Source of the DNA: an uncultured Bacilli bacterium
GTDB lineage: Bacteria > Bacillota_I > Bacilli_A > RF39 > UBA660
Assembly (NCBI GenBank): GCA_947630055.1
Contig: CANRGA010000001.1
Location: forward strand, 10,195-74,194
Length of the DNA: 64,000 nucleotides
Direction: 5' to 3'
Under the pieces are notes generated by a model. It did not search any database. It was given only the letters and a program-made list of their open reading frames with translations, and was not told where the DNA came from. Positions 89 through 46,576 of the stretch are shown here, one piece after another; positions within the stretch are counted from its first letter, which is position 1; the number at the start of each line of letters is the position of its first letter. The position numbers and the translations under genes are program-made.

Positions 89-1030
89 TTAATTTGCTTT
101 TGTTTTATTATTTACTAATTTATAAGTTGTGACATAAATATCTGTATTAGTAGTAAATTCAATTACTAATTTATTTTTCTTTTTAACTATAAGTATACCA
201 ATTGTTTTATTATTAGAATTTTCTTTTATATATTTATCGATATAGCTGACATAAAATTGTAATTTTCCAATATCTTCTGGTTTTATCTCTTTTGATTTTA
301 TTTCTACTACTACATAGGCATTTAATTTAATGTTAAAAAATAATAAATCAATTCTATAAGCTTTATTGTTAATTTTTAGTTTATATTCATGCCCAACAAG
401 AGCAAAACCTATACCTAATTCCATAAATCTATTTTCAACATTATTTATTATTTTTTTGTGAATAGTTGCTTCATCTAGTTTTGAAGTATTTTCCTCAATA
501 TTAATAATAATTGGATCTTTTATCATATCTTCAATGGTTAAGCTATTATTTTGAGTATCTGTGATTAATTTAACATTATTTTTATCGGCATAAGTAAGTC
601 TTTCAAATGATTTACTTTTTATTTCATTTCTTAACTCTCTAACAGATAAATTATTAAGTATAACTTGGTTTATATAATAGTTTCGTTCATTTTCATTTTT
701 TATTGAAAGTAATTCTATTATGTGACTCCACATCAATTGTCTCAACGATGTTGAGACAATTGGAAACATAAGATAAAACTGCTTAAACCTAAATAAATTA
801 ACTCTATTATAATTCTTACCGTATTCTTGTGATAATTTTTCGCCCCACTTCTTAATTAAATTATCACCATACTTAGCCCTAGATGCTCCACTTTGAGCTT
901 CAACTAATAATCTCCCTATTTCATAATATCCTTTTAATCTTTCTTCATTATCAACCATTCTTCTTACTCTTGAACTACTCTCAATATCAATTATGACATT
1001 TTCCACTTTTTTTAGTGTTTCATTATTCAT
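89..1030 (-). CDS. DUF1016/YhcG-like PD-(D/E)xK nuclease family protein, full-length copy
   Basis: Track ORF 89..1267 contains internal Met MNNETLKK at 1030 preceded by GGGAGAG RBS, giving 314 aa colinear with the 319-aa paralog at 21354. C-terminus ELGIGFALVGHEYK..YRIDLLFFN..VVVEIK matches the PD-(D/E)xK core of the DUF1016 family. Confidence 0.65.
   Translation of the reverse strand: MNNETLKKVENVIIDIESSSRVRRMVDNEERLKGYYEIGRLLVEAQSGASRAKYGDNLIKKWGEKLSQEYGKNYNRVNLFRFKQFYLMFPIVSTSLRQLMWSHIIELLSIKNENERNYYINQVILNNLSVRELRNEIKSKSFERLTYADKNNVKLITDTQNNSLTIEDMIKDPIIINIEENTSKLDEATIHKKIINNVENRFMELGIGFALVGHEYKLKINNKAYRIDLLFFNIKLNAYVVVEIKSKEIKPEDIGKLQFYVSYIDKYIKENSNNKTIGILIVKKKNKLVIEFTTNTDIYVTTYKLVNNKTKAN
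734..762. repeat. perfect 13-bp inverted repeat with 3-nt spacer inside DUF1016 N-domain coding sequence (CAATTGTCTCAAC gat GTTGAGACAATTG)
   Basis: Read directly. Encodes PIVSTSLRQLMW. Confidence 0.9.
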
Positions 1031-1456
1031 ACATTCTCTCCCTTCTTTAATTAATTCACAACTTGATAAATTATTAAGTATTATTTGATTAATATAATAA
1101 TTTCTTTTATTCTCATCTTTTATTGGTAATAACAATACAATTTGAGTCCAACTTAATTGCGAAATCAGTGATTTCGCAATTGGAAATTCTAAATAATATT
1201 GCCGTATTAATTCTAAATTTCTACTGCTATAATTTTTACCATATTCTAAAGATAATTTTTTCCCCATTTCTTAATTAGGTTTTCGCCATATTTTGCTCTA
1301 GATTCTCCACCTTGAGCATTTACTAGTAATCTACTTATTTCATAATATCCTTTTAACCTTTCTTCATTATCAAACCATCATTCTTACTCTTGAACTACTC
1401 TCAATTTCTATTATGACATTTTCTACTTTTCTAATTTACTTTTGTTCTATTATTTA
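1031..1456 (-). pseudogene. degenerate remnant of a DUF1016 N-terminal domain (in-frame 5' extension 1031..1267 plus frameshifted piece 1268..1456)
   Basis: 1031..1267 encodes EKLSLEYGKNY...NYYINQIILNNLS. 1268..1456 on the minus strand reads VENVIIEIESSSRVR..GENLIKKWG with indels. One-base loss at the KKWGEK junction creates the ATG used by the track ORF. Confidence 0.5.
1155..1181. repeat. perfect 13-bp inverted repeat, 1-nt spacer (AATTGCGAAATCA g TGATTTCGCAATT) at the homologous codon position of the remnant copy
   Basis: Read directly. Encodes PIAKSLISQLSW. Confidence 0.9.
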
Positions 1457-2044
1457 CTAATTTATTCTTTTGCGAATAGTGACTTCATCTAATGCAGAAA
1501 TATCTTCATCAACATTAATAATAATAGGATCTTTAATCATATCTTCAAGAGTTAAGTTATTATCTTTAATATCAGTTATTAACTTAATATTATTTTTATC
1601 GGCGTAAGATAATCTTTCATAAGATTTACTTTTTATTTCATTACTAAGTTCCCTTACTGATAAATTATTAAGTATAACTTGGTTAATATAATAATTTCTT
1701 TCATTTTCGTTTTTAATAAATAATAATAATCTAAAATGACTCCATGTTAATTGCGTACACACTGTGTACGCAATTGGAAAAATCAAATAAAATCTACGAT
1801 ATAATTCCAAATTTCTTGTTCCATAATTCTTACCGTATTCTTGTGATAATTTTTCGCCCCACTTCTTAATTAAATTATCACCATACTTAGCCCTAGATGC
1901 TCCACCTTGGGCTTCAACTAATAATCTACCTATTTCATGATATCCTTTTAACCTTTCTTCATTATCAACCATTCTTCTTACTCTTGAACTACTTTCAATA
2001 TCAATTATGATATTTTCAACTTTTTTTAATGTTTCATTATTCAT
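1457..2044 (-). CDS. DUF1016 N-terminal-domain-only paralog (truncated, 195 aa, lacks PD-(D/E)xK core)
   Basis: Own RBS AAGGAGAAAATGT-ATG. 75-80 percent identical to N-halves of 89..1030 and 21354..22313. Stops exactly where paralogs continue into the nuclease core. Confidence 0.6.
   Translation of the reverse strand: MNNETLKKVENIIIDIESSSRVRRMVDNEERLKGYHEIGRLLVEAQGGASRAKYGDNLIKKWGEKLSQEYGKNYGTRNLELYRRFYLIFPIAYTVCTQLTWSHFRLLLFIKNENERNYYINQVILNNLSVRELSNEIKSKSYERLSYADKNNIKLITDIKDNNLTLEDMIKDPIIINVDEDISALDEVTIRKRIN
1749..1775. repeat. perfect 13-bp inverted repeat, 1-nt spacer (AATTGCGTACACA c TGTGTACGCAATT) at the homologous codon position of the truncated copy
   Basis: Read directly. Encodes PIAYTVCTQLTW. 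Confidence 0.9.
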
Positions 2045-2278: not shown

Positions 2279-2980
2279 ATGAAAAAACTTGCTGCATTTT
2301 TTGCTATGTGCGCTTTAATTACAATGCCAGTTAATGCTGCATGTTCTTATACGGAAAAAGCAGAGGCTAATACAAAGGCCGCAAATGTAAAAATAAATTA
2401 TGAGGTTGTTGAAGATAAACAAGAATCTGATATGGGTACTTCAATAAATGAATATTTTAAAATTAGTATTTTAAATGTAACTAAAGAGTTATATGTTGTA
2501 GTTAGTAATGATGTTACTAATGATAAAGTTACTTATACTTTTGATGATGCTAAAGATGGTGTAATAACATTTAATTGGGATAACATTGAAACTATTACCA
2601 ATTTTACATTTACTATTTATGCTTCAAATCAAACTCCATGCTATAATGAAGAATTAAAAACTATTAGAAAACAAACACCAAGATTTAATGACTTTTCTAA
2701 TAGAGCTATATGTGATGGTATGGAAGATTTTTATTTATGTCAAAAATATACAAATATTGCTGAAATAGATGAAAGTATGTTTATTGAAAAAGTAGCAAGT
2801 TTTAAAGATGGCAAAATCACTGAAGAAGGTAAAGATGCTGAAAAAGAGAAAAAAGGAAATAGCATAATAAGTTTCTTAAGAAAAAATAGATGGTATATAA
2901 TAGGTGGATTATTAGTAATAGCTACTGGATCAGGTGTAGCTATAGTAATAAGAAATAGAAAATACAGGGAGGTTAAATAG
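2279..2980 (+). CDS. secreted protein with N-terminal signal peptide and C-terminal transmembrane anchor (first gene of the pilus operon)
   Basis: ATG at 2279 after GAGTAGGTG RBS. MKKLAAFFAMCALITMPVNA signal. C-terminal WYIIGGLLVIATGSGVAIVI then RNRKYREVK. Stop is 2 nt before the next start. Confidence 0.55.
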   Translation: MKKLAAFFAMCALITMPVNAACSYTEKAEANTKAANVKINYEVVEDKQESDMGTSINEYFKISILNVTKELYVVVSNDVTNDKVTYTFDDAKDGVITFNWDNIETITNFTFTIYASNQTPCYNEELKTIRKQTPRFNDFSNRAICDGMEDFYLCQKYTNIAEIDESMFIEKVASFKDGKITEEGKDAEKEKKGNSIISFLRKNRWYIIGGLLVIATGSGVAIVIRNRKYREVK

Positions 2981-2982
2981 TA

Positions 2983-5900
2983 ATGAAGAAAGTAGTAAAA
3001 TTAATAAGTCTATTTGGGCTATTATTAATGATTAATGCTTTAAGAGTAGAAGCGGATATAAAAGCAAATTCATATTCAGATGCAGGTTATTTTGGTGGTG
3101 AAAAAGTACTAGAAGCAAAATTAAATGTTAATGGTACTAACACTACTGCATATTGTCATAATCCAGGTGTTACTGCATTTACACAAAGTGATGTTAGTAA
3201 TAAAATAACTCTTGTAACAAAAAGAAAACTTGGTGATACTAAAAATGGTCGTGCTCAAAATATTTATGATGCCGGATTAATGTCAATTTTAACAAATAAT
3301 AATAAAGACAATGGAAATGCTAACTTTAGTATGGCTAAGTACATAGCAGTTAACTTATATGAACAATTATTCCCAATGTTCAATACCAATGGTAATAATG
3401 GTAGTTCAGAAATTCCTTATTTAAAATATATAGTTAATACACAATTGTATGATAGTGTTAAAGGTGATTTAAAAACATTATCAAATAATATGGGTGCTTA
3501 TAATGTTATTAGTAGTAGAATGAGCGGAGCTAGTAAATGTACTAGTAATTGTGGTTCTAGTTCTGATGTTAATACTGCAGTGTCAATGGTAAAAACTGCT
3601 TTAAAAACAGCTATTAACTATGCTCAAAATGGCGAGGCAACAGCTACAGTTGGTAATGCTATTCAAACTCGTTCAGAAACTAAAGATGATAAAGGAAAAG
3701 TTACTTATAAAGATACAGCAAATCATACAATTACAATTGCTTCATTTGGGGATTCTAATAATAGACCTCGTTCAGTTTATTTAAGCTTTAATTGTGCAAA
3801 TTGTAAAAATGTTACTACAAAATTTTATCTTAATGATAAAGAAGTTAATGATATATCAAAAATTAATTTATTAGATTATACAGATAATGGTTCTGGAGCT
3901 GTTCAATTAAAAATTGAATTTACTGGTGATACTTGTGAAGAAATCAATTACACATTAACAGCAACTTACACTCATTATTCTATTTCACGTTCTGGTTATT
4001 CAGTAGCTAAGTGTTCAAATTCTAATAAATGTCAAGGTTTCTATGTAGCTGATTCTAGTAGTTCAACTGGAACAAAAACAACTTCTATAGAAAATAAAAT
4101 AAGTTTATGTCCAACAAATGCTGATGTATCTCAATGTACTGCTAAAATTGATAATGTTGAATGTGTTGAATGCAAAGCTAATACTCATGAAGTAAACATT
4201 GTTGAAGGATATACTTATCCAAATGATAATACTTGTGATACTTCAGGAGCTACTTTAGATATTAAAAAGTGTATTGCAAATGATGGTGCTATAGATACAG
4301 CAAATCATACATATAAAAATAGTGAACTTTCTCAAGATACAAAAAGCCATAATGCTGGTGTATATTGTAAAGAAGATTATACTTTAAGTATGCCAGGCTC
4401 TATAATGGTTGATACTGGTAGATATTTTACTTTAAAATCATCTATTACAGGAACAGAGAAATGTTATACTAATGATTTATTAAATTCAAAAAGTGTAGCA
4501 AGTGTTAAAGCAACAATAGCGCAACATGGAAAAGAAACCGTAAATGCATATAATGAAATTCAAAAATATAAAGCAATTGAAGCTTGTGTTAATAATGGTG
4601 GAAATTGTATCACTGTAAAAAAAGAAAGAAATTCAACTCCATGTAAATATAAATATTATTTTGTATCATCTACTAGACATTGTAAAGAATGGAATGAAAG
4701 TGGTACTTCATGTGCTAAATATGAAACAGATGATGAATATTTGGCTAGATGTAAATCTTTAGGAAAATATGGATATATTAATTCATCTGGTACCTGTAGA
4801 TATATGCCAGAGGCAAAGCCTTTATATCAATATAGAATTGTTGCGGATTATAAAGTATCATATAATGTTTCTTCATGTGACGGAGGAGGTACTACAACCG
4901 CATCTGATAGAATATATGAAGGTGAGTGGCGTACTTGTGGATATGATCAATATTGTGGTGGAAAAAGATGTTCAGAAGTTTCTACTGAAGCTGATGATGA
5001 TACGATTCCAGAAGTAAGAGAAGAAGTTTCTGAAAATGAAAGAGCCGCAGCTTTAGCTGCTATAGGCCAAAAAGCAACAGGCCACTGGGTAAGTAATGGT
5101 GGTGTTGGTAGTAAGGTATCAGCAGGTGGTAGTTGGGTTGGATCATCAGGCTCTGGTTTAAGTGTACAATTAGGTACTGGTAGTATTATTTCTGATATAA
5201 ATGACTGGAACTCTGCTACTGGATATTATGGTGGTATATTTGGTAATGACTTTGATGATACACCATTCGATGGTGGTTGGAAAATGAGTTATAATTTTGA
5301 TCCAGATATGTATTTCTGGTATCAAGAAGAATATATGAAACAAGCTAGAACAAATCAAATGGATATGTATGATAAATCATTAAAAGATGTTAAGGCTCAA
5401 TATTGTGAAGGTACAGTATCTAATGATTATCAAACTTGTTCAACTGGTTGGAAAGATATTCCATCTGTTGAAAGTGGTAGCGTTTGTGTATGTTGGGGAC
5501 CTGATCCTGGAGACTGTGGAAATAAAAATTATGTATTATCTAAAGTAAGATATGTTATTCAGTCTCAAGAAGCAGAAGCAAAATTTATAACACCAACTCA
5601 ATTTTATACAATAGCACCATCTGGAAGTATAGTTGTAGCTGATCAAGGTAAAAGTGATGAAATACCAAATTCAAAAGAACTTACTAATGGTTTACCTGTT
5701 GGTCTTGGATCAAATGGTACAAGAAGATATGTATTATGGGTAGAAAAATTAGGTGAATATTTTGATACTGATAATTTAGGCCGTGTTTGGGGACAAAGTG
5801 ATAGTGTTATTTCTAAATTACTTAAAGATAGAACAAAATGTAATAATCCTAATTCAGCATTAGTAGATGAAGACAATACTCAAGGTGTAATTCATGATGA

Positions 5901-6807
5901 AGGAGTATATGCATGTAAGTATAGTACTGACTGTCCTAAATCATGTACTAAAGAAGATGATAAATATTATTGTAAAGATGGAGAACCTTGTGATAAAGAA
6001 CAATATGATAAAGAATGCTGTCCAACTTGTCCACCAACAGTAGCATATAAATGTGCTGTAACAACTAATGAAAAAGGTGAAACAGTATATTATGATAAAG
6101 CTGGTAATATAACTACTGAAAAGATTTATAAATCTGAATGTTGTCCTAATGACGAATGTCCTGTAACTTGTGCATTCTGCCTATATGATGGCAATAAGCT
6201 AAATGTTCAATATCGACCAATTACATCAGAGAATGTTAACCCTAATGATAGGGATTTAGGTAAAAACTGGAATTGGGAAGAGCCAATAAATACAGCTTTA
6301 GAATTAAAAGCCTATGTTACTACTAATGAAATAGAAGAAAATGGCGATAGCATTTATGATGTAAATTTTGATAATATAGATGAAAATAATGACTTTGCAA
6401 TGCAAGTTACAATGAATGCACAAATGATTAGTGAAATAAGAGCTTATAATGATAAATATAAAGATGAAGGATATGCTAATAACTCTCTTGAATGTTACGA
6501 TTTAAAAAGTGGTGATACAGTTCATAAAAATGTTTTCTGTTATAGTAACTTTATTGATACTTTAGTAGAAAAATTTGCTACAAATAAAGATGATAGTCCA
6601 ATTAAATTTAATGTAGAAAGACCAATGGGTAATGCAAGAAAAGATACAAAAGAAAATGAAAAATACTTTACTAGTTGGATTTCTGCTGATACTAGTAATT
6701 GGAATGTAACCACTACTAAAGAACTAGCATATTATAAACAACATTATGGTATGGAAATGCAAGATGATAAAGTTGTAGACTACCATGTTGGACCATCATG
6801 GAAATAG
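2983..6807 (+). CDS. large (1274 aa) cysteine-rich secreted protein, candidate pilus-associated adhesin
   Basis: Signal peptide MKKVVKLISLFGLLLMINALRVEA. Many paired cysteines (CPTCPP, ECCPNDECPVTC, CVECKANTHE). No recognisable catalytic motif. Translationally coupled to flanking genes. Confidence 0.65.
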   Translation: MKKVVKLISLFGLLLMINALRVEADIKANSYSDAGYFGGEKVLEAKLNVNGTNTTAYCHNPGVTAFTQSDVSNKITLVTKRKLGDTKNGRAQNIYDAGLMSILTNNNKDNGNANFSMAKYIAVNLYEQLFPMFNTNGNNGSSEIPYLKYIVNTQLYDSVKGDLKTLSNNMGAYNVISSRMSGASKCTSNCGSSSDVNTAVSMVKTALKTAINYAQNGEATATVGNAIQTRSETKDDKGKVTYKDTANHTITIASFGDSNNRPRSVYLSFNCANCKNVTTKFYLNDKEVNDISKINLLDYTDNGSGAVQLKIEFTGDTCEEINYTLTATYTHYSISRSGYSVAKCSNSNKCQGFYVADSSSSTGTKTTSIENKISLCPTNADVSQCTAKIDNVECVECKANTHEVNIVEGYTYPNDNTCDTSGATLDIKKCIANDGAIDTANHTYKNSELSQDTKSHNAGVYCKEDYTLSMPGSIMVDTGRYFTLKSSITGTEKCYTNDLLNSKSVASVKATIAQHGKETVNAYNEIQKYKAIEACVNNGGNCITVKKERNSTPCKYKYYFVSSTRHCKEWNESGTSCAKYETDDEYLARCKSLGKYGYINSSGTCRYMPEAKPLYQYRIVADYKVSYNVSSCDGGGTTTASDRIYEGEWRTCGYDQYCGGKRCSEVSTEADDDTIPEVREEVSENERAAALAAIGQKATGHWVSNGGVGSKVSAGGSWVGSSGSGLSVQLGTGSIISDINDWNSATGYYGGIFGNDFDDTPFDGGWKMSYNFDPDMYFWYQEEYMKQARTNQMDMYDKSLKDVKAQYCEGTVSNDYQTCSTGWKDIPSVESGSVCVCWGPDPGDCGNKNYVLSKVRYVIQSQEAEAKFITPTQFYTIAPSGSIVVADQGKSDEIPNSKELTNGLPVGLGSNGTRRYVLWVEKLGEYFDTDNLGRVWGQSDSVISKLLKDRTKCNNPNSALVDEDNTQGVIHDEGVYACKYSTDCPKSCTKEDDKYYCKDGEPCDKEQYDKECCPTCPPTVAYKCAVTTNEKGETVYYDKAGNITTEKIYKSECCPNDECPVTCAFCLYDGNKLNVQYRPITSENVNPNDRDLGKNWNWEEPINTALELKAYVTTNEIEENGDSIYDVNFDNIDENNDFAMQVTMNAQMISEIRAYNDKYKDEGYANNSLECYDLKSGDTVHKNVFCYSNFIDTLVEKFATNKDDSPIKFNVERPMGNARKDTKENEKYFTSWISADTSNWNVTTTKELAYYKQHYGMEMQDDKVVDYHVGPSWK

Positions 6808-7242: not shown

Positions 7243-8010
7243 ATGGGAAATTTAGTGGCAACATTAAAACGATTTATTCAAAATAAAAATACAGTTACTA
7301 TTTTAGCCGTACTTGCTGGTATTATAATATTATGGTATTTTTATAACTATCGAGTAAATCAAGCCGTAACGACTGTTGAAATACCTTATGCAATTGATCA
7401 AATAGATACACGAAAGAAAATTGAAACAGATAATCTTAAAACTAGAGAAATAACAAGAGCTGCTTTAAAAGATAATGATTTAGTTGAATCAATTGCAGAT
7501 TTAGAGGGTAAATACATATGTGTAGGAACTAGCATACCTGCAAATGGCTTTTTCCATAAATCACAAGTTTGTGAAGAAAGAGATTTACCGAATTCTGTTA
7601 ATGAAAACTTACCAGAAGGATATACTCTTGCTAATATAAAAGTTACAAATGAGACTACATATGCTAACTCTATATCTGAAGGTGATTATATCGATATTTA
7701 TATGTATGCTAAAGATGCTAATAATCAAGCATTATATGGTAAATTAATTGAGAAAATCAAAGTACTAGAAGTAAGAGATAATAGTGGTAAAAATATATTC
7801 TGGGATGCGACTGCTGGTGAATCTGCTCAATTATTATTTGGTGTTCCAGATGAATATGCTGATTTATTCGATATAGCAAGTAGAACAAATGGTATTACTT
7901 TAGTACCTAGATTAAGAAATGCTGCTTATTCAAAAAATCCAGGTGAAACTGAAATTTCTAGTGAAGAATTAAGAGCATTTATAATGAATCAAGTACAATT
8001 AGTAGAATAG
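7243..8010 (+). CDS. CpaB/RcpC-like Flp pilus assembly protein (N-terminal TM, SAF-like domain)
   Basis: 255 aa. TM VTILAVLAGIIILWYFY. Size, topology and position immediately upstream of the CpaF-like ATPase. Confidence 0.4.
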   Translation: MGNLVATLKRFIQNKNTVTILAVLAGIIILWYFYNYRVNQAVTTVEIPYAIDQIDTRKKIETDNLKTREITRAALKDNDLVESIADLEGKYICVGTSIPANGFFHKSQVCEERDLPNSVNENLPEGYTLANIKVTNETTYANSISEGDYIDIYMYAKDANNQALYGKLIEKIKVLEVRDNSGKNIFWDATAGESAQLLFGVPDEYADLFDIASRTNGITLVPRLRNAAYSKNPGETEISSEELRAFIMNQVQLVE

Positions 8011-8033: not shown

Positions 8034-9125
8034 GTGAATGATGCAATATTTTCACAAATTGATTTTGGACCTTTAAAAGAATTTTTAGATGATGATAATA
8101 TAACCGATATTTCTTATGGAAATGGTGGACAAATTCATTTAAAAACTTTGGATAAAGGTGTTTATCGTATTGAAAAGCCAGAAATAAATAATGCACTTTT
8201 AGAAAAATTAGCTTTTCAATGTTCCAATGTTATGGGAAAAACATTTAATATGGCCCATCCATTTCTTGATGCAGAATCAGCTGAATTACGTTTAAACTTT
8301 ATTCATGATTCTATTGCTACTAATGGAATAGCTTGTGTTATCAGAAAAACACCTGCTAAAATAAGACTTAATAAAAAAAAATTAATAAGTGAAAAATATG
8401 TAACTGAAAATTTATTGGACTTTTTACTTACGTGTGTTGAAGGACATTGTAACATTATTGTAAGTGGAGAAACTGGTAGTGGTAAAACAGAACTTGTTAA
8501 ATATTTAGCCAGTCACACTAAAGAAAATGAAAAAGTTATAACAATTGAAGATACACTAGAACTACACTTAGATAAAATTTTTCCTCATCGTGATATAGTA
8601 GCAATGAAAACTAATAATATAGCTAGTTATAGTGATGTATTAGTAGCCTGCATGAGACAAAACCCACGATGGATTTTACTATCCGAAGTTCGTAGTGCTG
8701 AAGCTGTTACGGCAGTTCGTAACTCAATATCATCTGGACATAATATTTTATCTACTATTCACTCAGATCGAGCTTTAAATGTGCCAATGCGTATGTATTC
8801 GTTACTAGAATCAAATCAAGATATTGATCAATTTTTAAAATCAATTCATAGATATGTTCAACTTGCTATTCATGTTAAAGGATATATGAGTGCTGAACTT
8901 GGAAGATTCCAAAGAGAAATAGTAGAAGTTTGTGAATTTTATGTTGATGAAGATAATAATGCGGGTGCTAATATAATATATAAAAAGAATTTAGATGGAG
9001 CAATTCATTTTAATAATCCAACAAAACATTTAAAAGAATATTTAGGCAGTCAAGGAGTTGTTATTAAAGACAATTTATTTGTTGCAGATAATGAATCAAA
9101 TGAAGAAGCAATAGATACATTATAA
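8034..9125 (+). CDS. CpaF/TadA-family secretion ATPase (VirB11-like)
   Basis: Walker A IIVSGETGSGKTE. Asp box ITIEDTLEL. Walker B-like RWILLSEVR. His box LSTIHSD. 363 aa. GTG start with GGACGGGG RBS. Confidence 0.85.
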   Translation: MNDAIFSQIDFGPLKEFLDDDNITDISYGNGGQIHLKTLDKGVYRIEKPEINNALLEKLAFQCSNVMGKTFNMAHPFLDAESAELRLNFIHDSIATNGIACVIRKTPAKIRLNKKKLISEKYVTENLLDFLLTCVEGHCNIIVSGETGSGKTELVKYLASHTKENEKVITIEDTLELHLDKIFPHRDIVAMKTNNIASYSDVLVACMRQNPRWILLSEVRSAEAVTAVRNSISSGHNILSTIHSDRALNVPMRMYSLLESNQDIDQFLKSIHRYVQLAIHVKGYMSAELGRFQREIVEVCEFYVDEDNNAGANIIYKKNLDGAIHFNNPTKHLKEYLGSQGVVIKDNLFVADNESNEEAIDTL

Positions 9126-13620: not shown

Positions 13621-13800
13621 GAATTAAGGTGGTCTCATTATTTAAAATTAATAAAGATAGATAATGAAATTAAAAGAAGACAAAAATTTCATTAAAGATC
13701 CATATGTATTAGAATTTTTAGATATAAAAGAAAAATACTGGATAATTTTGCTATATTGTGGTATTATATGAAACAATTGATTTTGAAGGGGTGTTTTGTT

Positions 13801-16800
13801 ATGAAATACGCAAAATATAAGTATATATTTATGTTATTTTTAGTGATCATTTTTTTACCATTTAAAGTTATGGCCAAAAATATTAATTTAGATATTGATA
13901 AATATGATTTAACTATTGGTGATGAAATAACAGTAAGTGTTAGTTTACCAGATGAAATAAAAGCTTATGCAGTTATGGCAACTTTTACTTATGATGAAAA
14001 TGTTTTTACTAAAATAGATATTGATGATTTTTCTATTTTAAATAAAAATTTAAATATTTCTTATAATGATAATACTAAAAAATTTGGTTTAATAAACGAA
14101 ACAGGTAAATTAGATAATGAATTATTTCAAGTTCATTTAAAAGTAAAGGAAAATGCTAATGTTGGCGATACTAATATAGCTTTAACAAATATAGTAGTGT
14201 CTGATGGAACAAAGAAAGAAGAATATAATAAGACTATTAAAACTATTTTAGTTACAAGAGATGCTAAGCCTGGTGAAGAAATACCTATTAATAAATCTAA
14301 TAAAGTAGAAGAAAGTAAAGAAATTGAAACTAAAGTATTTACATCTAAGCCGTTTATGATTACTTTAGGTATAAGTGCTATTGTAATTTTAGGATTAGTG
14401 ATTTATATTACCTTATTTAAAAAAGATAAAAAGACTTTAAAAAATATTCTTGTTGGTTGTGCAACTATTTTAACCATTTCTTTTGTAGTTATATATATAT
14501 TTAATATTAATAAAAGAGATGTTAATAATGATGGAGTTAAAGATTACAATGATGCAAAAGAAATACTTAAATATCTTTTAGATATTACAGGTACTGAAGA
14601 AATTGATAATAATAAAAATACTTCTAATAAAAAACCAAGTATTAACCCAAATAATAAATATGATGTTAATAATGATGGTAAAATTGATATAAATGATGTT
14701 GGTAATAATACGGAAAATGTTACTGAAAATACAAAAGTGATTTTAAAAGAAAAGAACGATAATAAAGATTTTTATGTCAAAAAAGGTGATATTACTTTAA
14801 AATTTACTGCAGAAATTACACCTAAAAATGTAACAATAACTAAAGTAAAAATTAATAATAAATATTATGATGTTATCAATAATAATGGCGAATATTCTGT
14901 TACTATAGAGTCTAATAAAGCAGGTAAATACGAATTTGCTATTACTAGTGTTATTTTATCTAATGGCAAAGAAATAAATGTTAAACTTAAATTTGTAAGA
15001 GAAGTTTTAAAAGTTACTCCTTATGTTAATAAATTTAATTTAAATGATGAAAAAGGTTCTTTAAGTTTTGAACTAGTAGATCCAGAAGATGCTTTTATTA
15101 GTGGTGAAGTTACTGTTTATGATGGTGAAAAAGTAATTGTCAAAGAAAATGTTAAAAGTACAACTAAAATTAATGATATTCCTATTGATGAAGATAAAAT
15201 TTATCGTTTAGAAGTAATGGGAGAATATGATTTAGATAGCAATAAAAATGATGATAATAATCATTTTACTAATCAAACTATGTTTAACCATTCCTTTATG
15301 ATAGGGGGAGATTATAACTTCACTTTAACTGATGTAGGAATTACAGATGCGATTAAAAAGGGTGAAAAGCCAGTTATAAGTTTTAAAAGTACAAATACTA
15401 AAGGAGTGACTGTTGAAAATGCTTCTTTAACTATTGGAAATAAAACTAATAATTATGTCATTAGTAAAATAGATGGTGATAATTATGAAGTTATTTTAGA
15501 AGATGCTGATACATCTGTAGGTAAACATAAAGTAAATTTAGATAGTGTTAGATTAAAATCTTTAAAGACGTTTAATAATAAAAAAGACTATGATGCTAAT
15601 ACACTAACTTATACTGTGTTAAAAGATTCGCCAAAAGTAACTAGTTTGAATGTAGAAGAAGATTCCGAAAATAAAAGTATTATTGCTAAATTTAGTATAA
15701 ATGATGAAAGTAGTGCTATTAGTAGTTTAAAAGTTGTTTTAGTAGATTCAACTGGAGCAGTTATTGCATCACAAATTTTAACAAGAGAAGAATACTTAGA
15801 AAAAGGTGAAGTATCACTATCTTATGATGGTAGTACAGATGGTAATTATAAAGTTAAAATTTTAGCTGATTATGCCCTAAGTGATCAATATAACTATACT
15901 GATAAACCAATTGGGGAAGAAGCAATTACAGTTAATACTGGTGTATATATTGAAGCTATTGAATATGTTGAAACAAAACAAAATAATCGTGTTATTGATA
16001 GTGGTAAATTTGCTAGTAAAGGCCAAAAAATGTATCGAATGAACTTTATCGTTCATACCAAAGGAATAAGATCATATTCACGTCTTTCATCTATTACGAT
16101 TAATGGTTTAAATTATATTGCTAATGGTGGAGCATCTGCCATAGAAAATGCTGAAGGTGAATATAGATATACCTCAACTGTTGCTATTACTGTGCCAAAA
16201 GAAGCAGGTATTATGACAATTACTGCTAATCGTGTTCAATTAGAAGTTAATAGTTATAATTACAAGGTTAATCAATTTTATCATGTTCCAGATGTATCTA
16301 AAGAATATGAAGTATTAAAAGATATTCCAAGTATTGCTAATTTAAAAATACAAAAAGAAGATTATGAAGCAAAAGAAGTTACTTTTAATTTTGATGTTAT
16401 CGACAAAGAAGATTCATTTATAAGTGGTAAATTAGAATTAAATGGTAAGAGTGAAGAGATAAATAAAGGTAATAATACAGTTACTTTTACTGGTATTGAA
16501 ACTGATAAAGTTCATGATTTGATTTTTAAAGCTGATTATAAATTAAGTACTGGTGAAATTGAAGATCCAATTAATCAAACAGAAAAAAGTAATGCGGAAA
16601 TATATAAAGTTAAATATGGTTTATATAAAGAAGATACTTATAATGATATTAAGATAAGTGAAATTACTCCAGTTAGTGAAAAGAACAATAAATATTTTGA
16701 AAAAAACGAAGATATTAAATTAAATCTTATTATTGTAGGCATTCCCGAGTATTTAAATGTTTATCCAGAAAGAGTTATTATTAATGATAAAGAATATGAT

Positions 16801-19800
16801 TCAAAAGCTTTAATGACTTGTCATGAAGTAACTTTAAAGGGTTATACTTCATCTGGTGAAAAAGAACTTAAAGTTAGTGCCATCATTTTAAATAATGGTA
16901 AAGTTATAACTTTAGATAAAGAAGTAACTATTGAAGTATTAAAAGATATACCAAAAATAACTGATTATAAATATTCTATTAATGATAATAGTATTAAAAT
17001 TACTTTAGCTAATAAAGATAGTGATTCATCTTTAGATGGTGATTTACAAGTTAAAGTTACTGATGATACAGGGAAAGAACTTTATAATAGTAAATATCAA
17101 GAGACAATTGAGTTTAAAAAGAATAAAGATGCTTTAAGATATTATATTTCTGTTATAGGTAGTTATGATAGAGATATTGATAAACAAGAAGATAGTGAAA
17201 ACTATAATAAAGATATTAAATTATTAGATGAAACTATTTCTCTAGATAAAAATAATATTGAATTAAAAGATATTACTTATATAACCTTATATAAAGAAGA
17301 AAATGATAAAATATTAGAGATTAGAGAAATAACTAAAGAAGAATTAGAACAAAATATTGAAAAATATTTTGTCGAAGTTAATATGGAAAATATGCCTTCT
17401 GTTTATGCTAAACTTAAAAAAGTTACTATTGAAGATAATCATTTAATGCTAATTTTAGATTATGAATATGTAACTAAAGAAGAAAGTAAATCTAAAGAAA
17501 TCAAAGTTGATTATGGGGCTATAATTAATGGTAAAGCAAAAAATGAAACTAATCCATTAAATGAATTTAATATCTTAAAAGAAAGAATTAAAAATAATGA
17601 ACATATCATTTTAACTCATGATTATGATTTAAAAGATATTGAAGTTACTACAAGTTATTATTTTGAAAACTTTAGTGGTTCAATTGATGGTAATGGTCAT
17701 AAAATAACTAATTTAAGTAAACAATTATTTAATGAACTTAGTAATGCGGAAATTAAAAATTTAATAGTAGAAAATGCTAATATAAGTGGTGCTGTTCGTG
17801 GTATTTTAGCCGATAAAGGTACAGATGTAGTAATTAATAATGTTCATTTATATAATGGTAATATTAAAGCTAATCTTGTTACTAATGGAACTGGTATTAT
17901 GTTTGGTGAAACAAGAAATAGTATAGAAATATCAAATTCATCAATTGTAAATAGTTCAGTTAGTGGTGGCAAAAGAACTGGTGGCTTTATTGGTCAAGCT
18001 TATAATAAAACAACGATTACTAATAGTTATATCAATGATAGTAGTGTAACTGGTAATAATGACGCTATTGGTGGCATTATTGGCGAAGTAAGTAGTGCTA
18101 ATAATGTTTCTATGACTAATTGTTATAGTAAAGTTACTATGGATGGTGGTGCTGGTAATGCTAAAGCTGGTATTTTAGGCTATACTAATAGTAGCGGTGC
18201 AACTAAATTAATTAATAGTTTAAGTATGTCTCAAGGAAATAGTGGTACGAGAGTATATGGTAATGGTATCTCTGCTACTAATGTCTATGAGTTAAAAGAA
18301 TCTACTATGAGATCGCAAGCTGGTGGCCAAATTAAAGAAATAACTGGTAATGATATTAATAAAGAATTCTTTATTAATTCATTAAATTGGGATGAAGAAG
18401 TGTGGAATTTAGATAATGTATCAGCTGATGTACCTCCTATTTTAAAAGGCGAAAAATTTGAGCCTGTGAAAAGCCCAATAGAAGCTGAAGATGGTTATGA
18501 TCCAAATAAAAGAATACTTTATAATAACTTAATGAAATTAATGCCTTTCTATGATAGTGAAAAAATAGTTAGAACTGGTATGCATATTACTGATAATAAT
18601 TTACTTAATAAAGAAATTCAACATATTGTGCCAATTGATAATAAAGGAAGTATTGTTACATATTTAACAAGTGATAATTTAAAGAAAATAAGTAAGATAA
18701 AAGTAGTATATAAAACGAAAGAAAAAGTTACTTATGATGTAAAATTTGATAATACTTATGATATGGTAGCAAGTTATCGTATACCTGATTTAAATATCGA
18801 TTATACTTATAACCATTATATTATTGATGCTAACTCTCAAGTAGTAAATAATATAACTAATTATTTAAAAGATTTAAGTTATACAAATAATTTAGATACT
18901 TTAACTGCTACTAAAGATAGTAGAATATTAAGAGATTTCTATAATGATGTTACTAGTAAAGAATTAAAAGAATTTACTTTAAAATATTTATCTAATAGTA
19001 ATTATACTAATACCACTAACAATGATAGTATTAATAGTCATTTGGAAAGTGAAATTAAAAAAGATAAAAAAATTGAAAAAGTATTATATATGTATAATTA
19101 CTTTAGAAGATTCTATGATGTTGAAATAGATGGTATGAAATTATATGATTTTATGCTATTTAACATGAATGGTTTTGATGAATCATTAACAAGCCAAATG
19201 ATAGCCCGTATTTATTTACAAGATGGTAATAACTTTAACACTGGTTCAACTGGTACTAAATATCGTGATTTACTAGGGGGTTATACTAAACTTAATACTA
19301 TTGCCAAATTCATCGAATATATGGTAACTGAATTTAGTAATGATAATATGAATGATTGGGTAAGGAAAGAATTTGCAGGTTACTTAGTAGAAATTCCAGT
19401 TAAAGGTCATGAAAAAGACATTCAATATACTTTATGGGATCACTTTAGTAATGAAGATGCTGTTTATAATAATCCACATAGAGCATATGATATGATGTTA
19501 CCAATTTTAACATTGCCAAAGAATGCAGCTTATATAATTTCTACGCCAGTTCAATTTATCATCGGGGCGCAAAGAAGTTATATTGAAGATCCAGAAGATC
19601 CTACTTCTCAAAGTATTTTCCAAAGAAGAGTTAAAAGCTACGCTAAGAGAATGGAAACTTATTTTGATACAGCTTATAAAATTTTAGGCGATGCAAAATA
19701 CTTTAATGATATTCATACTTTCCAACTTGATAAAAGATTTGCTTATGATGAAAATGGCGCAATGGTATATCAACAAGCCTATGTTACAGAGGAGCCATTC

Positions 19801-21353: not shown

Positions 21354-22313
21354 ATGAAAGGCAAAATTATGACAGAAGAAAAAATATACAACGAAATAGT
21401 TGAGTTAATTGAAGAAAGAGAAGTAAAAAAGTTTGTTAGAGAATTTAAAGAAAATTCAGAAACATTAAAAACTAATTGGGAGATAGGTAGATTACTAGTT
21501 AATGCTCAAGGTGGAGAAGCTAGAGCAAAATATGGTGAAAATCTAATTAAGAAATGGGGCGAAAAATTATCTTTAGAATATGGTAAGAATTATAATAAAA
21601 GAAATCTTATGTATTATAGACAATTTTACTTAACATTTCAAAATGTGAACACAGTGTGTTCACAATTTAGTTGGTCAATATGTAGATGCTTATTATCAAT
21701 AAAAAATGAGAATGAGAGAAACTATTATATAAATCAAGTAATACTTAATAATTTATCTGTTAGAGAGTTAAGAAATGAAATAAAAAGTAAAGCCTTTGAT
21801 AGATTATCTTATGCAGATAAAAATAACATTAAGTTAATAACAGAGAATAATAATTCAATAACATTAAGTGATATGATAAAAGATCCGATAATTATTAAAA
21901 CTGATAAAGATACAACTAATTTAACTGAACAAAAATTACATGAAATATTAATTGAGTTAGTTGAAAATCATTATATGGAATTAGGAGCAGGTTTTGCTTT
22001 AATAGGTCATGAATATAAATGCAAAATAGATAATAGAACTTATAAAATAGATTTATTATTCTTTAATTATAAAATAAATGCCTTTGTTGTAGTAGAAGTG
22101 AAGATAAAAGAATATAATCCAAAAGATAGAGGGCAAATAGAATTATATATGGATTATGTTGATAAAAATATAAAAGAAAATTATCATAATAAAACAGAAG
22201 GTATATTAGTAGTTAGAGAAAAGAATAAACTAGTTACTAAATATATTTCTAATAATAATTTATATATTACTACTTATTTATTAGAAAATAAAAAAGTACA
22301 AAATGGCAAATAA
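21354..22313 (+). CDS. DUF1016/YhcG-like PD-(D/E)xK nuclease family protein (intact, 319 aa)
   Basis: ELGAGFALIGHEYKCKIDNRTYKIDLLFFNYKINAFVVVEVKIKE core. N-domain homologous to copies at 89..2044. Confidence 0.75.
   Translation: MKGKIMTEEKIYNEIVELIEEREVKKFVREFKENSETLKTNWEIGRLLVNAQGGEARAKYGENLIKKWGEKLSLEYGKNYNKRNLMYYRQFYLTFQNVNTVCSQFSWSICRCLLSIKNENERNYYINQVILNNLSVRELRNEIKSKAFDRLSYADKNNIKLITENNNSITLSDMIKDPIIIKTDKDTTNLTEQKLHEILIELVENHYMELGAGFALIGHEYKCKIDNRTYKIDLLFFNYKINAFVVVEVKIKEYNPKDRGQIELYMDYVDKNIKENYHNKTEGILVVREKNKLVTKYISNNNLYITTYLLENKKVQNGK
21644..21664. repeat. perfect 10-bp inverted repeat, 1-nt spacer (TGTGAACACA g TGTGTTCACA) at the homologous position of the plus-strand DUF1016 copy
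   Basis: Read directly. Encodes NVNTVCSQFSW. Extended arms are imperfect (one bulged A). Confidence 0.9.
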
Positions 22314-29205: not shown

Positions 29206-29740
29206 TCCTAAATTTACAAGCACTTGGTTGCCAATTAGGCAAATAATGAATGGAATGATTCAACTTGATGACGGTACTTATGTAACAGGAGTTAAAATAC
29301 ACCCTAAAAATATATTTATTATGGGTTCACAAGCGCAAGATAATATGATTTATAGTTTACGAAATTTCTATAATACAATAGATTATGAATTCTGGCTTAT
29401 TATTGCGGATCGTCCAGTTGATATTAATTTATATTTAGCAGAATTACAAAAGTTATATAATAATTCTTCTAGTAATGAAGTAAGAAAATTGATTTTGCAA
29501 GATATTAATAAAGCTAATCAATTTATGAGTATTGAATATAATGTTGTTGATACTGAATATTATTTAATATTCCAAGAGAAAAAATTAGAAATTTTACAAA
29601 AAAAATTACATAATATGATAAGTGGACTTGCAAATTGTGGATTACAATCAAGTCAAACAAGTAATGCTGACTTAAGAATTATTTTAGATAATCTTCTTAA
29701 TGGCGGCGAAGCAATTAATTTTGGGACGGTGATGAGCTAA
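29177..29740 (+). CDS. soluble N-terminal module of a split VirB4-family protein (separate ORF coupled by TAATG)
   Basis: 187 aa with no TM. Stop TAA overlaps the ATG of 29740 (GCTAATGAGT). 187 + 595 aa equals the size of Gram-positive VirB4 (TcpF/ConE). Confidence 0.35.
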   Translation: MKNSEQAISNPKFTSTWLPIRQIMNGMIQLDDGTYVTGVKIHPKNIFIMGSQAQDNMIYSLRNFYNTIDYEFWLIIADRPVDINLYLAELQKLYNNSSSNEVRKLILQDINKANQFMSIEYNVVDTEYYLIFQEKKLEILQKKLHNMISGLANCGLQSSQTSNADLRIILDNLLNGGEAINFGTVMS

Positions 29741-31527
29741 TGAGTAATGTAAAAAATGCTATAGCACCAAAAGGTATGGAATTTAAACCTACCGAATTTA
29801 GAATTAGTGGTAAATATTCTACTATTATTACTATTGTAACTTTTCCCAAAAATGTTTATGTAGGTTATTTATCAGATATAACTAATATTTCGGGAGTTAA
29901 AGTTGTTGTTAAACATATTCCAATTCAATTCCAAGTATTGCAAAAAATGATTAATAAGGAAATTGCAGATTTAAAGACAAGATATCAATCAGAGCATGAT
30001 CAAACATTACAAGAAAAAATTCGTCAAGATTATGAATCATTAGAGCAATTTATTAGTATGCTTGCTTCAACTGATGCTAGAATATTCGATTTTCAAATGC
30101 ATTTAATGCTTACTGCTGATAGTAAAGAAGAACTTGATAATAAAAGAATGGAAGTTAAAAGTTATTTAAATGCAATGGGTATGGCAGGCGTAGCTTTAAT
30201 GTTTGAACAAGAAAAAGTACTTAAAAGTATTGTGCCAATATTTCCACCTCAAGATATTGAGCAAAGAATTGGTACACCAATACCTTCAATTACTATTGCT
30301 GCTATGTATCCTTTTGTTTTTGATAGTATCAAAGATCCAGGATTATCATGTTTATTTGGCGTAGATTTCTCTGGTGGTGTTGTATTATTTAATCAATTCT
30401 TGTATCAAATAAGAAAAGAAAATAATCGTAATAATGCTAATATTATTTTACTTGGTACATCAGGAAGTGGTAAATCAACGGCTGCTAAACTTTTGCTTCG
30501 AACTCATTTACGTAATGGTTGCAAAGTTGTGGCAATCGATCCTGAAGGCGAACTAGGTGATATGACTGAACTTATGGGTGGAGATTTCTTAGACCTTGGT
30601 AAAGGTGGCCAATTTGGTATGATTAATCCACTTGAAATAGTAATGGATGTTGATGAAGAAGAAATATCTCAAGGCTTAGGATATACTGTTTTAACAAGAA
30701 CTCTTCAACAATTAAAAGCATTTATGAAGTATTATAATCCATCAATTGAAGAAGATGTTTTAACTCTTTTTAGTGAAGTAGTTCAAGATACGTATAAGAG
30801 ATTTAAAATTGATTTTGATACTGATTTTACTAAATTAACAAGAGATGATTATCCAACATTTGATGATGTTTATGCTACTATTCAAGGAAGACTTTTATCT
30901 ATGGTAGATGCAACTCATGAGCGAGATGTTATGGAAAGATTAGAATTAAAGGTACGACCTTTAGTCAAAGAATTAAGATATTACTTTACTGGTAAAACTA
31001 CCATTCAAATTCAAAGTGATTTTATTGTATTTAATATAAAAGAATTAATGAATAGTGATGAAAATATTAAAAATGCTTTATTCTTTAACATATTAAAATT
31101 TGCTTGGGGCTTATGTTTAGAGAAAGATGTTAATACAGTTATGATGGTGGATGAAGCTCATGTACTTCTTGCCACTCATAATGAACTTGGAGCAGAATTT
31201 TTAGCTCAAATTCAAAGACGTAGTCGTAAATATAATACTGGTACGATAATAATTACCCAACAACCAACTGATTTCGCAGCTCCATCTGTTATTCAACATG
31301 GTAAGGCTATTTTTGATAATGCTTCTTATTATCTAGTAATGGGCCTTCGTAAACAAGCGGTTGAAGATTTAGCTCAATTAATTGATTTAAATGAAAGTGA
31401 AAAAGAAGGAATAAAATATTATCCACAAGGCCAAGGATTATTTATCTGTGGTAATAGAAGAATGCGTATTAATGTTGTTGTTACTCAAGAAGAACTAGAT
31501 TCATTTGGTTCTGGTGGTGGCTATTAA
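29740..31527 (+). CDS. VirB4/TcpF/ConE-family T4SS ATPase (C-terminal ATPase module)
   Basis: Walker A ILLGTSGSGKST. Walker B MMVDEAHVLL. IIITQQP motif. Confidence 0.8.
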   Translation: MSNVKNAIAPKGMEFKPTEFRISGKYSTIITIVTFPKNVYVGYLSDITNISGVKVVVKHIPIQFQVLQKMINKEIADLKTRYQSEHDQTLQEKIRQDYESLEQFISMLASTDARIFDFQMHLMLTADSKEELDNKRMEVKSYLNAMGMAGVALMFEQEKVLKSIVPIFPPQDIEQRIGTPIPSITIAAMYPFVFDSIKDPGLSCLFGVDFSGGVVLFNQFLYQIRKENNRNNANIILLGTSGSGKSTAAKLLLRTHLRNGCKVVAIDPEGELGDMTELMGGDFLDLGKGGQFGMINPLEIVMDVDEEEISQGLGYTVLTRTLQQLKAFMKYYNPSIEEDVLTLFSEVVQDTYKRFKIDFDTDFTKLTRDDYPTFDDVYATIQGRLLSMVDATHERDVMERLELKVRPLVKELRYYFTGKTTIQIQSDFIVFNIKELMNSDENIKNALFFNILKFAWGLCLEKDVNTVMMVDEAHVLLATHNELGAEFLAQIQRRSRKYNTGTIIITQQPTDFAAPSVIQHGKAIFDNASYYLVMGLRKQAVEDLAQLIDLNESEKEGIKYYPQGQGLFICGNRRMRINVVVTQEELDSFGSGGGY

Positions 31528-46409: not shown

Positions 46410-46576
46410 ATGTGGATAAGCCAAAATGAACTTGCTAAATTGTTTGATACAACAAAAAATAATATTTCATTACACATGAAAAATATTTTTGAAAGTGGTG
46501 AGTTAGTTGAAAAAGTAGTTGTTAAGAAATTCTTAACAACTACAAAAGATGATAAAAAAATTGTTGTTGATTATTA
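46410..46576 (+). pseudogene. N-terminal fragment of a RhuM-family (virulence-associated) protein
   Basis: MWISQNELAKLFDTTKNNISLHMKNIFESGELVEKVVVKKFLTTTKDDKKIVVDY matches RhuM N-terminus. 55 codons then stop. Confidence 0.5.

Follow-up and report, generated by a model that had tools for sequence, protein, structure and literature searches.

Within the 64,000-nucleotide stretch of DNA analysed here (the window: positions 10,195 to 74,194 of contig CANRGA010000001.1 from an uncultured Bacilli bacterium, assembly GCA_947630055.1, numbered from its first letter), four paralogous genes or gene fragments of the DUF1016/YhcG family carry a long palindrome at the same point of their coding sequence, and the question is why the palindrome is kept while its sequence differs from copy to copy. 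To our knowledge this is a very common protein family whose function is uncharacterised. We found that the palindromes are real, far from random and shared across a very large protein family. Beyond what the original prediction had seen in the letters of the window, the feature is family-wide, stand-alone copies of it exist outside genes, and the helices that flank it in the protein covary with the site. The reading which we favour from these sequence comparisons, with a probability of about 0.6, is that the product of each gene binds the palindrome within that gene as its cognate site in double-stranded DNA.

The four inverted repeats were recovered at exactly the coordinates originally given for them. 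In gene A the palindrome lies at 734..762 (CAATTGTCTCAAC-GAT-GTTGAGACAATTG, arms of 13+13 bp around a centre of 3 nt) and codes for P-I-V-S-T-S-L-R-Q-L on the minus strand; in fragment B it lies at 1155..1181 (AATTGCGAAATCA-G-TGATTTCGCAATT, 13+13, coding for I-A-K-S-L-I-S-Q-L); in gene C at 1749..1775 (AATTGCGTACACA-C-TGTGTACGCAATT, 13+13, I-A-Y-T-V-C-T-Q-L); and in gene D at 21644..21664 (TGTGAACACA-G-TGTGTTCACA, 10+10, N-V-N-T-V-C-S-Q-F), where 3 further pairs beyond one A.A mismatch extend it to 21640-21668. All four are found in the sequence coding for the DUF1016_N domain (PF17761), between the FPI or FQN codons and the QL-W or QF-W codons, and the peptides encoded at the palindrome differ in every copy, both as had been claimed. 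They share a symmetry axis, which falls on codon position 1 of the same codon. The outermost 5 bp of the arms (AATTG/CAATT) belong to conserved codons, for Pro-Ile on one side and Gln-Leu on the other, and the variation is confined to the inner 7-8 bp, with copies C and D separated by two double (compensatory) substitutions and copies B and C by three, together with a change of the centre base. The arm sequences therefore differ between copies, which disposes of identical arms as a ground for rejecting the prediction. As single-stranded DNA the elements have folding energies of -8.8 to -12.5 kcal/mol, that of gene A being -12.4 kcal/mol (z -5.8).

The window has a G+C content of 26.5%, and coincidence in AT-rich sequence had to be considered. 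In 100 first-order Markov simulations of the window, palindromes of this size (arms ≥ 13, loop ≤ 3) were expected 0.05 times per window; 4 were observed, 3 of which were DUF1016 copies. Elsewhere in the same N-domains the longest perfect arm was 3-8. These two results rule out an AT-rich coincidence.

A scan of one genome per species gave 79 loci from uncultured gut Bacilli and 'Tenericutes' metagenome-assembled genomes (MAGs), many of them with tandem paralogues. All but a handful of the 123 homologous sites in these related Bacilli loci were palindromic at the same position, and 99 of the 102 unique sites of the window's clade had at most 2 mismatches in the 9 inner pairs. The palindrome type of fragment B recurs in two of the loci (L058 and L069). 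A distant subfamily recognised by the peptide 'IVQQAVGQLPW' (80 metagenomic genes; the distant clade) had no more than 5 mismatched pairs of 13 about the fixed axis in 78 genes, with a shifted or duplicated palindrome in the remaining 2; here pair position 1 was unpaired in 56%, as in a 3-nt loop. We also looked at 12 plasmid genes from seven phyla (hosts in Bacteroidota, Beta- and Gammaproteobacteria, Cyanobacteria, Actinomycetota, Acidobacteriota and Deinococcota), where the homologous site was outright the best palindrome in 10 genes and tied for best in 2, from Acaryochloris and Phocaeicola. Escherichia coli K-12 yhcG (L080, 12828-13955) contains three tandem 39-bp units, each a near-palindrome. 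The palindrome is thus overwhelmingly present at the same codon position in the DUF1016 homologues of other genomes, and among 520 kb of related loci the GC-containing perfect palindromes were almost all of the DUF1016 design. Full-text literature searches returned no earlier description of a coding palindrome in DUF1016/YhcG.

The family itself was found in 483 PLSDB plasmids, E. coli K-12, integrative conjugative elements and Type I restriction-modification operons, and PADLOC lists it as defence candidate PDC-S02. Genomes of the window's clade contain ten or more DUF1016 paralogues, often in tandem. One MAG, Lapin-019__bin1 (L006, L008, L012, L013 and L036), has at least 10 paralogues in a small genome, up to four of them in tandem; its palindromes are all different and its paralogues include a subfamily 34-39% identical to the window genes.

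Selection had been proposed to act on the nucleic acid and not on the peptide, and the observed pairing and covariation both exceeded expectation. When the protein sequences were kept and the codons were redrawn 200 times from the genes' own usage, 11.5 of 13 pairs were observed vs 6.0 after redrawing in the window's clade and 11.3 vs 5.8 in the distant clade, and approximately 90% of sites beat all 200 redraws. The arms covary while remaining complementary, as had been claimed from four copies: across 101 unique aligned sites 90.9% of alignment cells pair, vs 62.3% in shuffles and 30-37% with slid partners, changes are seen on both sides in 11 of the 13 pairs, and the covariation score is 0.638 vs 0.141 in shuffles. 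Close to the centre in the window's clade, C16-G20 was paired in 101/101 sites and A17-T19 in 89%.

This pairing is strictly Watson-Crick, since at the third positions of the arms the synonymous codons that would form G.U pairs (0.11 and 0.06 of expectation) are as depleted as those that would form A.C (0.18 and 0.12). Inside the palindrome the Gln codon was CAA in 65 cases and CAG in 1, even in genomes of up to 67% G+C, whereas Gln codons elsewhere in the same genes were CAG 591 times and CAA 307 times. The centre base was C or G (87 CTG/GTG vs 9 TTG/ATG), whereas elsewhere in the same genes TTG outnumbered CTG by 92 to 16. The G+C content of the arms was 0.58, vs 0.28 in the N-domains. At one metagenome locus (L114, CAATTTGTGCAGCAG/CTGCTGCACAAATTG) a compensated frameshift, in which the centre base was lost and one A was gained after the arm, changed the peptide from QQAAAQLPW to QQLLHKLPW and left a perfect 15+15 even palindrome in the DNA. 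A cause at the protein level was ruled out by the codon redraws of the same protein and by the survival of the L114 palindrome through this rewriting of the peptide.

In an AlphaFold model of gene A (mean predicted local distance difference test score, pLDDT, 70) the palindrome-encoded residues 89-100 form a loop, where confidence dips, between helix 76-88 and helix 101-108. The original description of this part of the protein as a specificity-like segment was apt, as the variable block is made up of the upstream helix, the loop and the start of the next helix. The upstream helix has the family motif G-x-G-F/Y-S-x-x-N-L-x-x-x-R-x-F-Y and fits KorB helices 3 and 4 by helix order, and the DUF1016 N-terminal domain has the features of a ParB-type helix-turn-helix DNA-binding fold. 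The nuclease domain resembles NucS, Cas4 and Hjc junction resolvases. Sequence searches gave no solved homologue, a profile search returning a spurious mitoribosomal match alone. Genes A and C are ~96% identical 5' of the variable block and ~88-90% 3' of it, and ~110 nt around the palindrome are unalignable; in gene A this hypervariable 'specificity cassette', containing the upstream reading helix, the palindrome-encoded loop and the start of the next helix, occupies 700..820 on the minus strand.

We found that specific residues in these helices change with specific base pairs of the palindrome, using 100 N-domains from the window's clade and 78 genes from the distant clade. In the window's clade, base pair -8 follows the residue after the invariant Asn-Leu (G with Lys/Arg in 46/46, C with Glu in 9/10 and T with an uncharged residue in 40/41), base pair -7 follows the residue before Asn-Leu (G with Arg in 46/56, T with Thr/Ser in 33/35) and base pair -6 follows the second residue after Asn-Leu (G with Arg/Lys in 48/49). 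Base pair -3 follows the residue after the invariant Trp (A with Ser in 37/37, T with Thr in 26/26) and also the third residue of an 'LS-x-RE' motif 30 codons downstream (C:G with Lys in 15/15, G:C with Ser in 14/17, A or T with Val). This correspondence between protein and DNA positions is found again in the distant clade, where G at -7 goes with Arg before Asn-Leu in 50/50 genes, C at -7 goes with Ala/Thr/Ser before Asn-Leu and Arg one residue earlier in 20/20, and the identity of the W-x-H residue, which is Gly, Phe (20/20) or Tyr (16/17), depends on base pairs 3 and 4. The outer and inner modules occur in free combination, with cross terms of z at most 4. The coupled residues had z values of 15 to 32, vs ~0 to 6 (mostly 0 to 3) at the synonymous third positions of neighbouring codons, so that linkage as the sole cause of the coupling was ruled out by these positions and by cross terms near zero.

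The four window copies obey these rules. Copy A (left arm GTCTCAAC) has R-V before Asn-Leu, F after it and S after Trp; copy B (GCGAAATCA) has R, E and T at these places, copy C (GCGTACACA) R, E and S, and copy D (GTGAACACA) R, M and S. The turn and helix of gene A, G-K-N-Y-N-R-V-N-L-F-R-F-K-Q-F-Y (773..820, minus strand), thus pair C at -7 with R-V and T at -8 with F; the helices of fragment B, G-K-N-Y-S-S-R-N-L-E-L-I-R-Q-Y-Y (1193..1240, minus strand), and gene C, G-K-N-Y-G-T-R-N-L-E-L-Y-R-R-F-Y (1787..1834, minus strand), both pair G at -7 with R and C at -8 with E; and that of gene D, G-K-N-Y-N-K-R-N-L-M-Y-Y-R-Q-F-Y (21582..21629, plus strand), pairs G at -7 with R and T at -8 with M. The Trp codons are in W-S-H at 722..730 (minus strand) in A, W-T-Q at 1142-1150 in B, W-S-H at 1736-1744 in C and W-S-I at 21672-21680 in D. 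The 'LS-x-RE' codons, which belong to a second helix-turn-helix-like element, are at 632..649 (L-S-V-R-E-L, minus strand) in A, 1052-1069 in B, 1646-1663 in C and 21753-21770 in D. In classical direct readout Arg and Lys are matched with guanine, Glu with cytosine and small or hydrophobic residues with thymine, and it is persuasive that the residue-base pairings observed here are the same ones.

Among the possibilities that had been put forward for the palindrome, we therefore favour a dimer-binding or self-recognition site, since residues covary with base pairs. Binding of the palindrome by the protein, the dimeric state in which it would bind and the consequences of binding are our inference. 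A DUF1016/YhcG protein has a ParB/KorB-like helical DNA-binding domain at its N terminus and a PD-(D/E)xK nuclease at its C terminus, and a homodimer would read a palindrome of ~27 bp, AATT(G)-N6-7-centre-N6-7-(C)AATT, which the gene itself contains where it encodes the loop joining two helices of that DNA-binding domain. In each half-site, base pairs 6-8 would be read from the upstream helix by the residues on either side of the invariant Asn-Leu, base pairs 3-4 from the downstream helix by the residue that follows the invariant Trp, and base pair 3 also by a single residue of the later 'LS-x-RE' helix. With the site placed between the residues that read it, both would be inherited together as a cassette of ~110 bp, and paralogues could diversify without cross-talk, which would also account for the distinct palindrome of each tandem paralogue. 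Both arms would change together because both half-sites must follow one protein that forms a symmetric dimer; binding of such a dimer to a duplex would require strict Watson-Crick pairing, and C and G would be equally frequent at the centre because the dimer cannot tell them apart at the dyad. The G-rich arms would be those read by Arg and Lys. The most likely consequence of binding is autoregulation, with the site as an operator or roadblock inside or beside its own gene, and the site may also serve as an address for the nuclease.

ParB/Spo0J with parS and KorB with OB are precedents for such a site, being ParB-fold helix-turn-helix proteins with palindromic sites, some of which are inside their own genes. 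DUF1016/YhcG proteins may act like ParB/KorB at the DNA-binding step, but they are not members of that family, since the N-terminal ParBc domain of ParB (PF02195, CTP-binding) had a Pfam match in none of the copies. They differ in having a PD-(D/E)xK nuclease as the partner domain, with no ParBc/CTPase domain in Pfam, and in having a hypervariable, paralogue-specific site that is always in the codons between the putative reading helices, whereas the ParB/KorB site is conserved. The arrays found beside DUF1016 genes, described below, also contain different sites rather than repeats of one.

It should be noted that several observations weigh against a cognate binding site. The Pfam HTH_ParB model aligns weakly, and does so to the later 'LS-x-RE' region instead of the G-x-G-F-S-x-x-N-L helix. 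The coupling is of a statistical kind, and each rule may go back to few independent evolutionary events, perhaps 4 to 10 lineages. The three units of E. coli K-12 yhcG differ from each other for one protein and cannot all be optimal sites. A nuclease with a binding site within its own gene must somehow avoid cutting it. The 64-kb window contains no further full copy of its four palindromes, so that no regulon is visible there; a search with half-sites gave one 9-mer at 31269 as the sole other match, with the partner arm absent. Finally, simple autoregulation would not lead one to expect arrays of heterologous stand-alone sites.

These stand-alone palindromes of the same design were found outside open reading frames (ORFs) in the Bacilli loci, next to DUF1016 genes (n = 29), where their flanks are short, decayed gene fragments in AT-rich non-coding DNA. 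Their centre base was A or T in 10/29, vs ~7% inside genes. Locus L003 has at least 10 of them, all different and 45-90 bp apart, in arrays at 1226-1440, 2499-2521 and 3236-3816; at 3745-3771 a non-coding 27-mer is identical to the palindrome of window gene C, and another is identical to the palindrome of that contig's own gene. Between the DUF1016 genes and the palindrome array of this locus (2600-3190) is an ORF which by eye resembles an AbiEi-type antitoxin. An array homologous to that of L003 is at 4078-4299 of L002, and L042 has stand-alone palindromes at 2958, 3174, 4410, 4514, 6230 and 7016. Two tandem palindromes (GGCAATTGTCCAACAGCTTGTTGGACAATTGGCC and GCAATTGTGCAACAGCTGTTGCACAATTG) were found in the high-GC metagenome contigs L149 (~1216-1297) and L173 (~736-817), ~225-265 nt upstream of the DUF1016 start codon, and in L173 the right arm of the second matches the in-gene palindrome of the locus itself.

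In E. coli a stand-alone palindrome lies between the yhcG stop codon and nanQ (L080, centre 13983) and differs from in-gene unit 1 at base pairs -8 and -7 only. Strains without yhcG (by subtraction, roughly 650 of 5426 genomes) have a perfect 15+15 palindrome with the arms of unit 1 just after gltD. Counting both strands, E. coli genomes have one or two loci each, with a median of one. The yhcG alleles contain 1, 2 or 3 palindrome units (further allele loci: L174, L175, L176, L177 and L179), and the single unit of O157 represents a loss of 78 bp, or two 39-bp units, in comparison to K-12. Length polymorphism of yhcG is used in E. coli O157 lineage typing, and the indel of two 39-bp units may relate to it; the yhcG marker of LSPA-6 (lineage-specific polymorphism assay) typing has a pair of 394/472-bp amplicons, of which the 394-bp allele alone was confirmed in a paper.

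Several rearrangements end at the edge of a palindrome. The E. coli B-type truncation falls exactly at the 3' edge of unit 3 in 726 genomes (the 'transposase' annotated after it had no Pfam match), IS1B abuts the 5' edge of unit 3 in 135 genomes, the O157 loss of two 39-bp units also ends at palindrome edges, L046 has a deletion end-point at a palindrome edge and L042 has a 5'-truncated gene copy that starts at the palindrome. Such end-points are few and were collected post hoc; together with the stand-alone copies they are compatible with additional binding sites and perhaps with cutting at the palindrome, and they leave room for a homing-like or cassette-exchange role.

The stand-alone copies resemble repetitive extragenic palindromes (REP/BIME) with their RAYT proteins and integron attC sites, in that these too are short, variable palindromes with conserved outer boxes which are associated with genes and sometimes arrayed. 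The counts in E. coli (1-2 loci per genome) and in the window (none outside genes) are unlike those of REP-RAYT systems, and the protein is a helix-turn-helix protein with a PD-(D/E)xK nuclease and no Y1 transposase. In contrast to attC, the arms are perfectly paired with AATTG/CAATT boxes, without extrahelical bases or RYYYAAC/GTTRRRY, and the primary copy is in an ORF; the window has no integrase adjacent to its copies, and tyrosine recombinase genes flank some plasmid copies. The in-gene palindromes are followed by CAATTA/G-A-C/G-x-TGG (Gln-Leu-x-Trp) with no T run, which is not the form of a Rho-independent terminator. Some stand-alone copies do have A and T tracts, for example in E. coli clone D i14 and at L003 3360-3385, and these may serve as terminators.

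The best surviving alternative to a binding site, though an unlikely one, is that a DNA hairpin or cruciform is recognised by its structure. It would extrude from the duplex, or fold in single-stranded DNA during replication or conjugative transfer, and would be a hot spot for breaks, recombination or template switching, possibly cut by the Hjc/NucS-like nuclease, which would promote cassette exchange and diversification. Strict Watson-Crick pairing, the stability of the DNA hairpins, the GC-rich arms in a 26.5% G+C genome, a nuclease domain akin to those of junction resolvases, the location of the window in a conjugative element, the frequently unpaired position 1 of the distant clade and the end-points at palindrome edges would all be expected of such a structure. 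However, it offers no reason for amino acids encoded outside the palindrome to track its base pairs with the chemistry of direct readout, it does not account for a centre restricted to C or G, and the pairing is kept right up to the centre in the window's clade, which a hairpin does not need; the break-point evidence consists of few post hoc events. We have kept the hairpin, recombination and cleavage possibilities of the original prediction as additional properties which the site may have, given the rearrangement end-points.

A second alternative extends the binding-site model, and we regard it as rather improbable. Here the palindrome is the cleavage target of the nuclease, the stand-alone copies are empty targets or else silent mini-cassettes, and the repair that follows cleavage spreads the gene in the manner of homing or swaps the cassettes. 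Sites in cis within the gene of the acting protein are known from phage pac in terS, and free-standing homing endonucleases have targets nearby; as in these systems, a protein and its putative DNA target are tightly linked here, and the palindrome retained at the same locus by yhcG-less E. coli, identical to in-gene unit 1, could be an 'empty site'. The altered flanking copy of yhcG-positive strains, the arrays of 4 to at least 10 different palindrome-centred mini-fragments beside genes, the truncations that begin or stop at palindromes and the ten or more, often tandem, paralogues per genome in the window's clade point in the same direction. Unlike in pac and classical homing systems, however, the site is symmetric, co-diversifies with the protein among paralogues and remains intact within the ORF, the cognate in-gene copy persisting in E. 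coli strains whose flanking copy is altered. The mini-fragments also have too little flanking homology for RecA-type conversion, and the palindrome-only allele of E. coli could just as well have been left by a deletion and kept as a gltD/nanQ terminator.

Thirdly, the palindrome could be functionless and self-perpetuating, an ancestral inverted repeat in a loop which tolerates substitutions and is constrained in length, with arm-to-arm conversion by template switching correcting one arm from the other. Mitochondrial genes of Nematomorpha contain perfect inverted repeats in functional coding sequence, in which pairing is kept by means of codon degeneracy and for which arm-to-arm conversion is discussed as the means of maintenance (PMC6649704); the conversion argument is also laid out in PMC8794818. 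DUF1016 genes likewise have perfect inverted repeats maintained at the nucleotide level in functional coding sequence. The Nematomorpha repeats are up to 284 bp long, scattered, and gained and lost between species, whereas the DUF1016 palindrome is a single element of ~27 bp at a homologous, fixed position across at least 7 bacterial phyla, with a sequence coupled to the encoded residues. Perfect arms without wobble, the persistence of palindromes in fragments, pseudogenes and decayed non-coding remnants with diverged flanks, the L114 frameshift and the variable number of units in E. coli all agree with neutral conversion. In a genome of 26.5% G+C, though, unbiased conversion cannot keep the arms at a G+C content of 58% under the prevailing AT pressure; it predicts neither the residue-to-base coupling nor the C or G centre, and leaves unexplained both the single design of the GC-containing perfect palindromes and the near absence of decayed copies (99/102 sites with at most 2 mismatches). 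The GC-rich arms spoke against template-switch self-correction as the main explanation, and the coupling decided the matter; we hold a purely neutral origin to be very improbable, although arm-to-arm conversion could help to keep the arms perfect.

The mRNA stem-loop suggested in the original prediction, which would control translation, stability or co-translational folding of the nuclease, is the least credible of all, since although the element is always transcribed, at a fixed position ~300 nt into the ORF, and has a strongly covarying stem with a high G+C content for this AT-rich genome, the stem does not tolerate G.U pairs (CAA is preferred over CAG although U.G is harmless in RNA), a C-or-G centre is symmetric for duplex DNA and not for a single strand, palindromes persist outside ORFs, the coupling to residues of a DNA-binding fold is unexplained, and Rfam has no matching family (no match for the window region at E ≤ 1 and a chance microRNA match only for E. 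coli yhcG).

If the palindrome is indeed the protein's own site, every member of the family has a testable DNA target that can be read from its gene sequence. It would be a natural case of a binding site and its specificity determinants being encoded together and diversifying together, which bears on how paralogues avoid cross-talk, and the residue-base rules would be the start of a recognition code and possibly of programmable binders or nucleases with long targets. A DNA-level constraint would then dictate eight protein residues across bacterial phyla, which calls for caution when 'conserved motifs' such as IVQQAVGQLPW or IxQTLSxx are read. A broader and more tentative view, which we consider possible but doubtful, is that DUF1016/YhcG proteins are a large and so far unrecognised class of 'self-addressed', sequence-specific nucleases in which target and reading residues are held within ~110 bp and linked by a simple, partly decipherable code; the arrays would be a diversifying repertoire, and cleavage at palindrome edges would drive homing-like spread, cassette exchange or the exclusion of competing mobile elements.

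Turning to the genes themselves, gene A (89..1030, minus strand, 313 aa) and gene D (21354..22313, plus strand, 319 aa) are full-length paralogues with DUF1016_N and YhcG_C (PD-(D/E)xK) domains, which belong to the family with Pfam scores of 114/139 bits and 107/111 bits respectively (PF17761/PF06250; cut-offs ~32.5); the PADLOC PDC-S02 models match at E 6e-76. Copies B and C match the N-domain only. Gene C (1457..2044, minus strand) has its own ribosome-binding site and start codon but is truncated after residue 195, with the nuclease domain lost. Fragment B (~1040..1440, minus strand) comprises only an N-domain (~residues 10-133) and belongs to a different paralogue type; a frameshift lies near its 5' end, and it is joined in frame to gene A inside ORF 89..1267.

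The arrangement of B and C is a recent rearrangement, since in the contig of a related strain (L178, 99% identical; 3041-4942 vs window 1040-2044) an intact C-type gene of 314 aa stands directly before gene A and fragment B is missing. In the window, the 3' part of gene C has been replaced by the N-domain fragment of this third paralogue type, with the junction near a short K-V-E-N / V-E-N similarity. L178 carries the same A and C palindromes and is therefore uninformative on the micro-evolution of palindromes between near-identical strains. Copies A-C and gene D are in inverted relative orientation with a 19-kb segment between them.

The window is part of a conjugative element, for which we surveyed the genes from 2267 to 46354. 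No integrase gene adjoins the window's DUF1016 copies, and megablast of the window DNA against plasmid collections gave no match. The element, giant surface proteins being among its products, includes genes for a VirB4-like ATPase (29740-31524), a VirD4/TraG coupling protein (36417-38633), an M23 peptidase/lysozyme (31652-34501), a Tad/T2SSE ATPase (8034-9122), an RcpC-like protein (7243-8007), an M26-peptidase-like protein of 2472 aa (13756-21171) and a Cys-rich secreted protein of 1274 aa without a Pfam match (2983-6804). On plasmids of Shewanella (L084), Pseudomonas aeruginosa (L088) and Robbsia (L083) the DUF1016 gene overlaps or abuts a tyrosine recombinase/integrase gene, and on a Deinococcus plasmid (L093) it is flanked by a Type I methyltransferase gene on one side and hsdS on the other. 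The remaining window palindrome with arms of at least 13 (46515-46543, GTAGTTGTTAAGAA-A-TTCTTAACAACTAC) has a design other than that of the DUF1016 palindromes; ORFs 45767-46354 (plus strand) and 46613-47419 (minus strand) converge on it with their 3' ends, and it is probably a bidirectional terminator.

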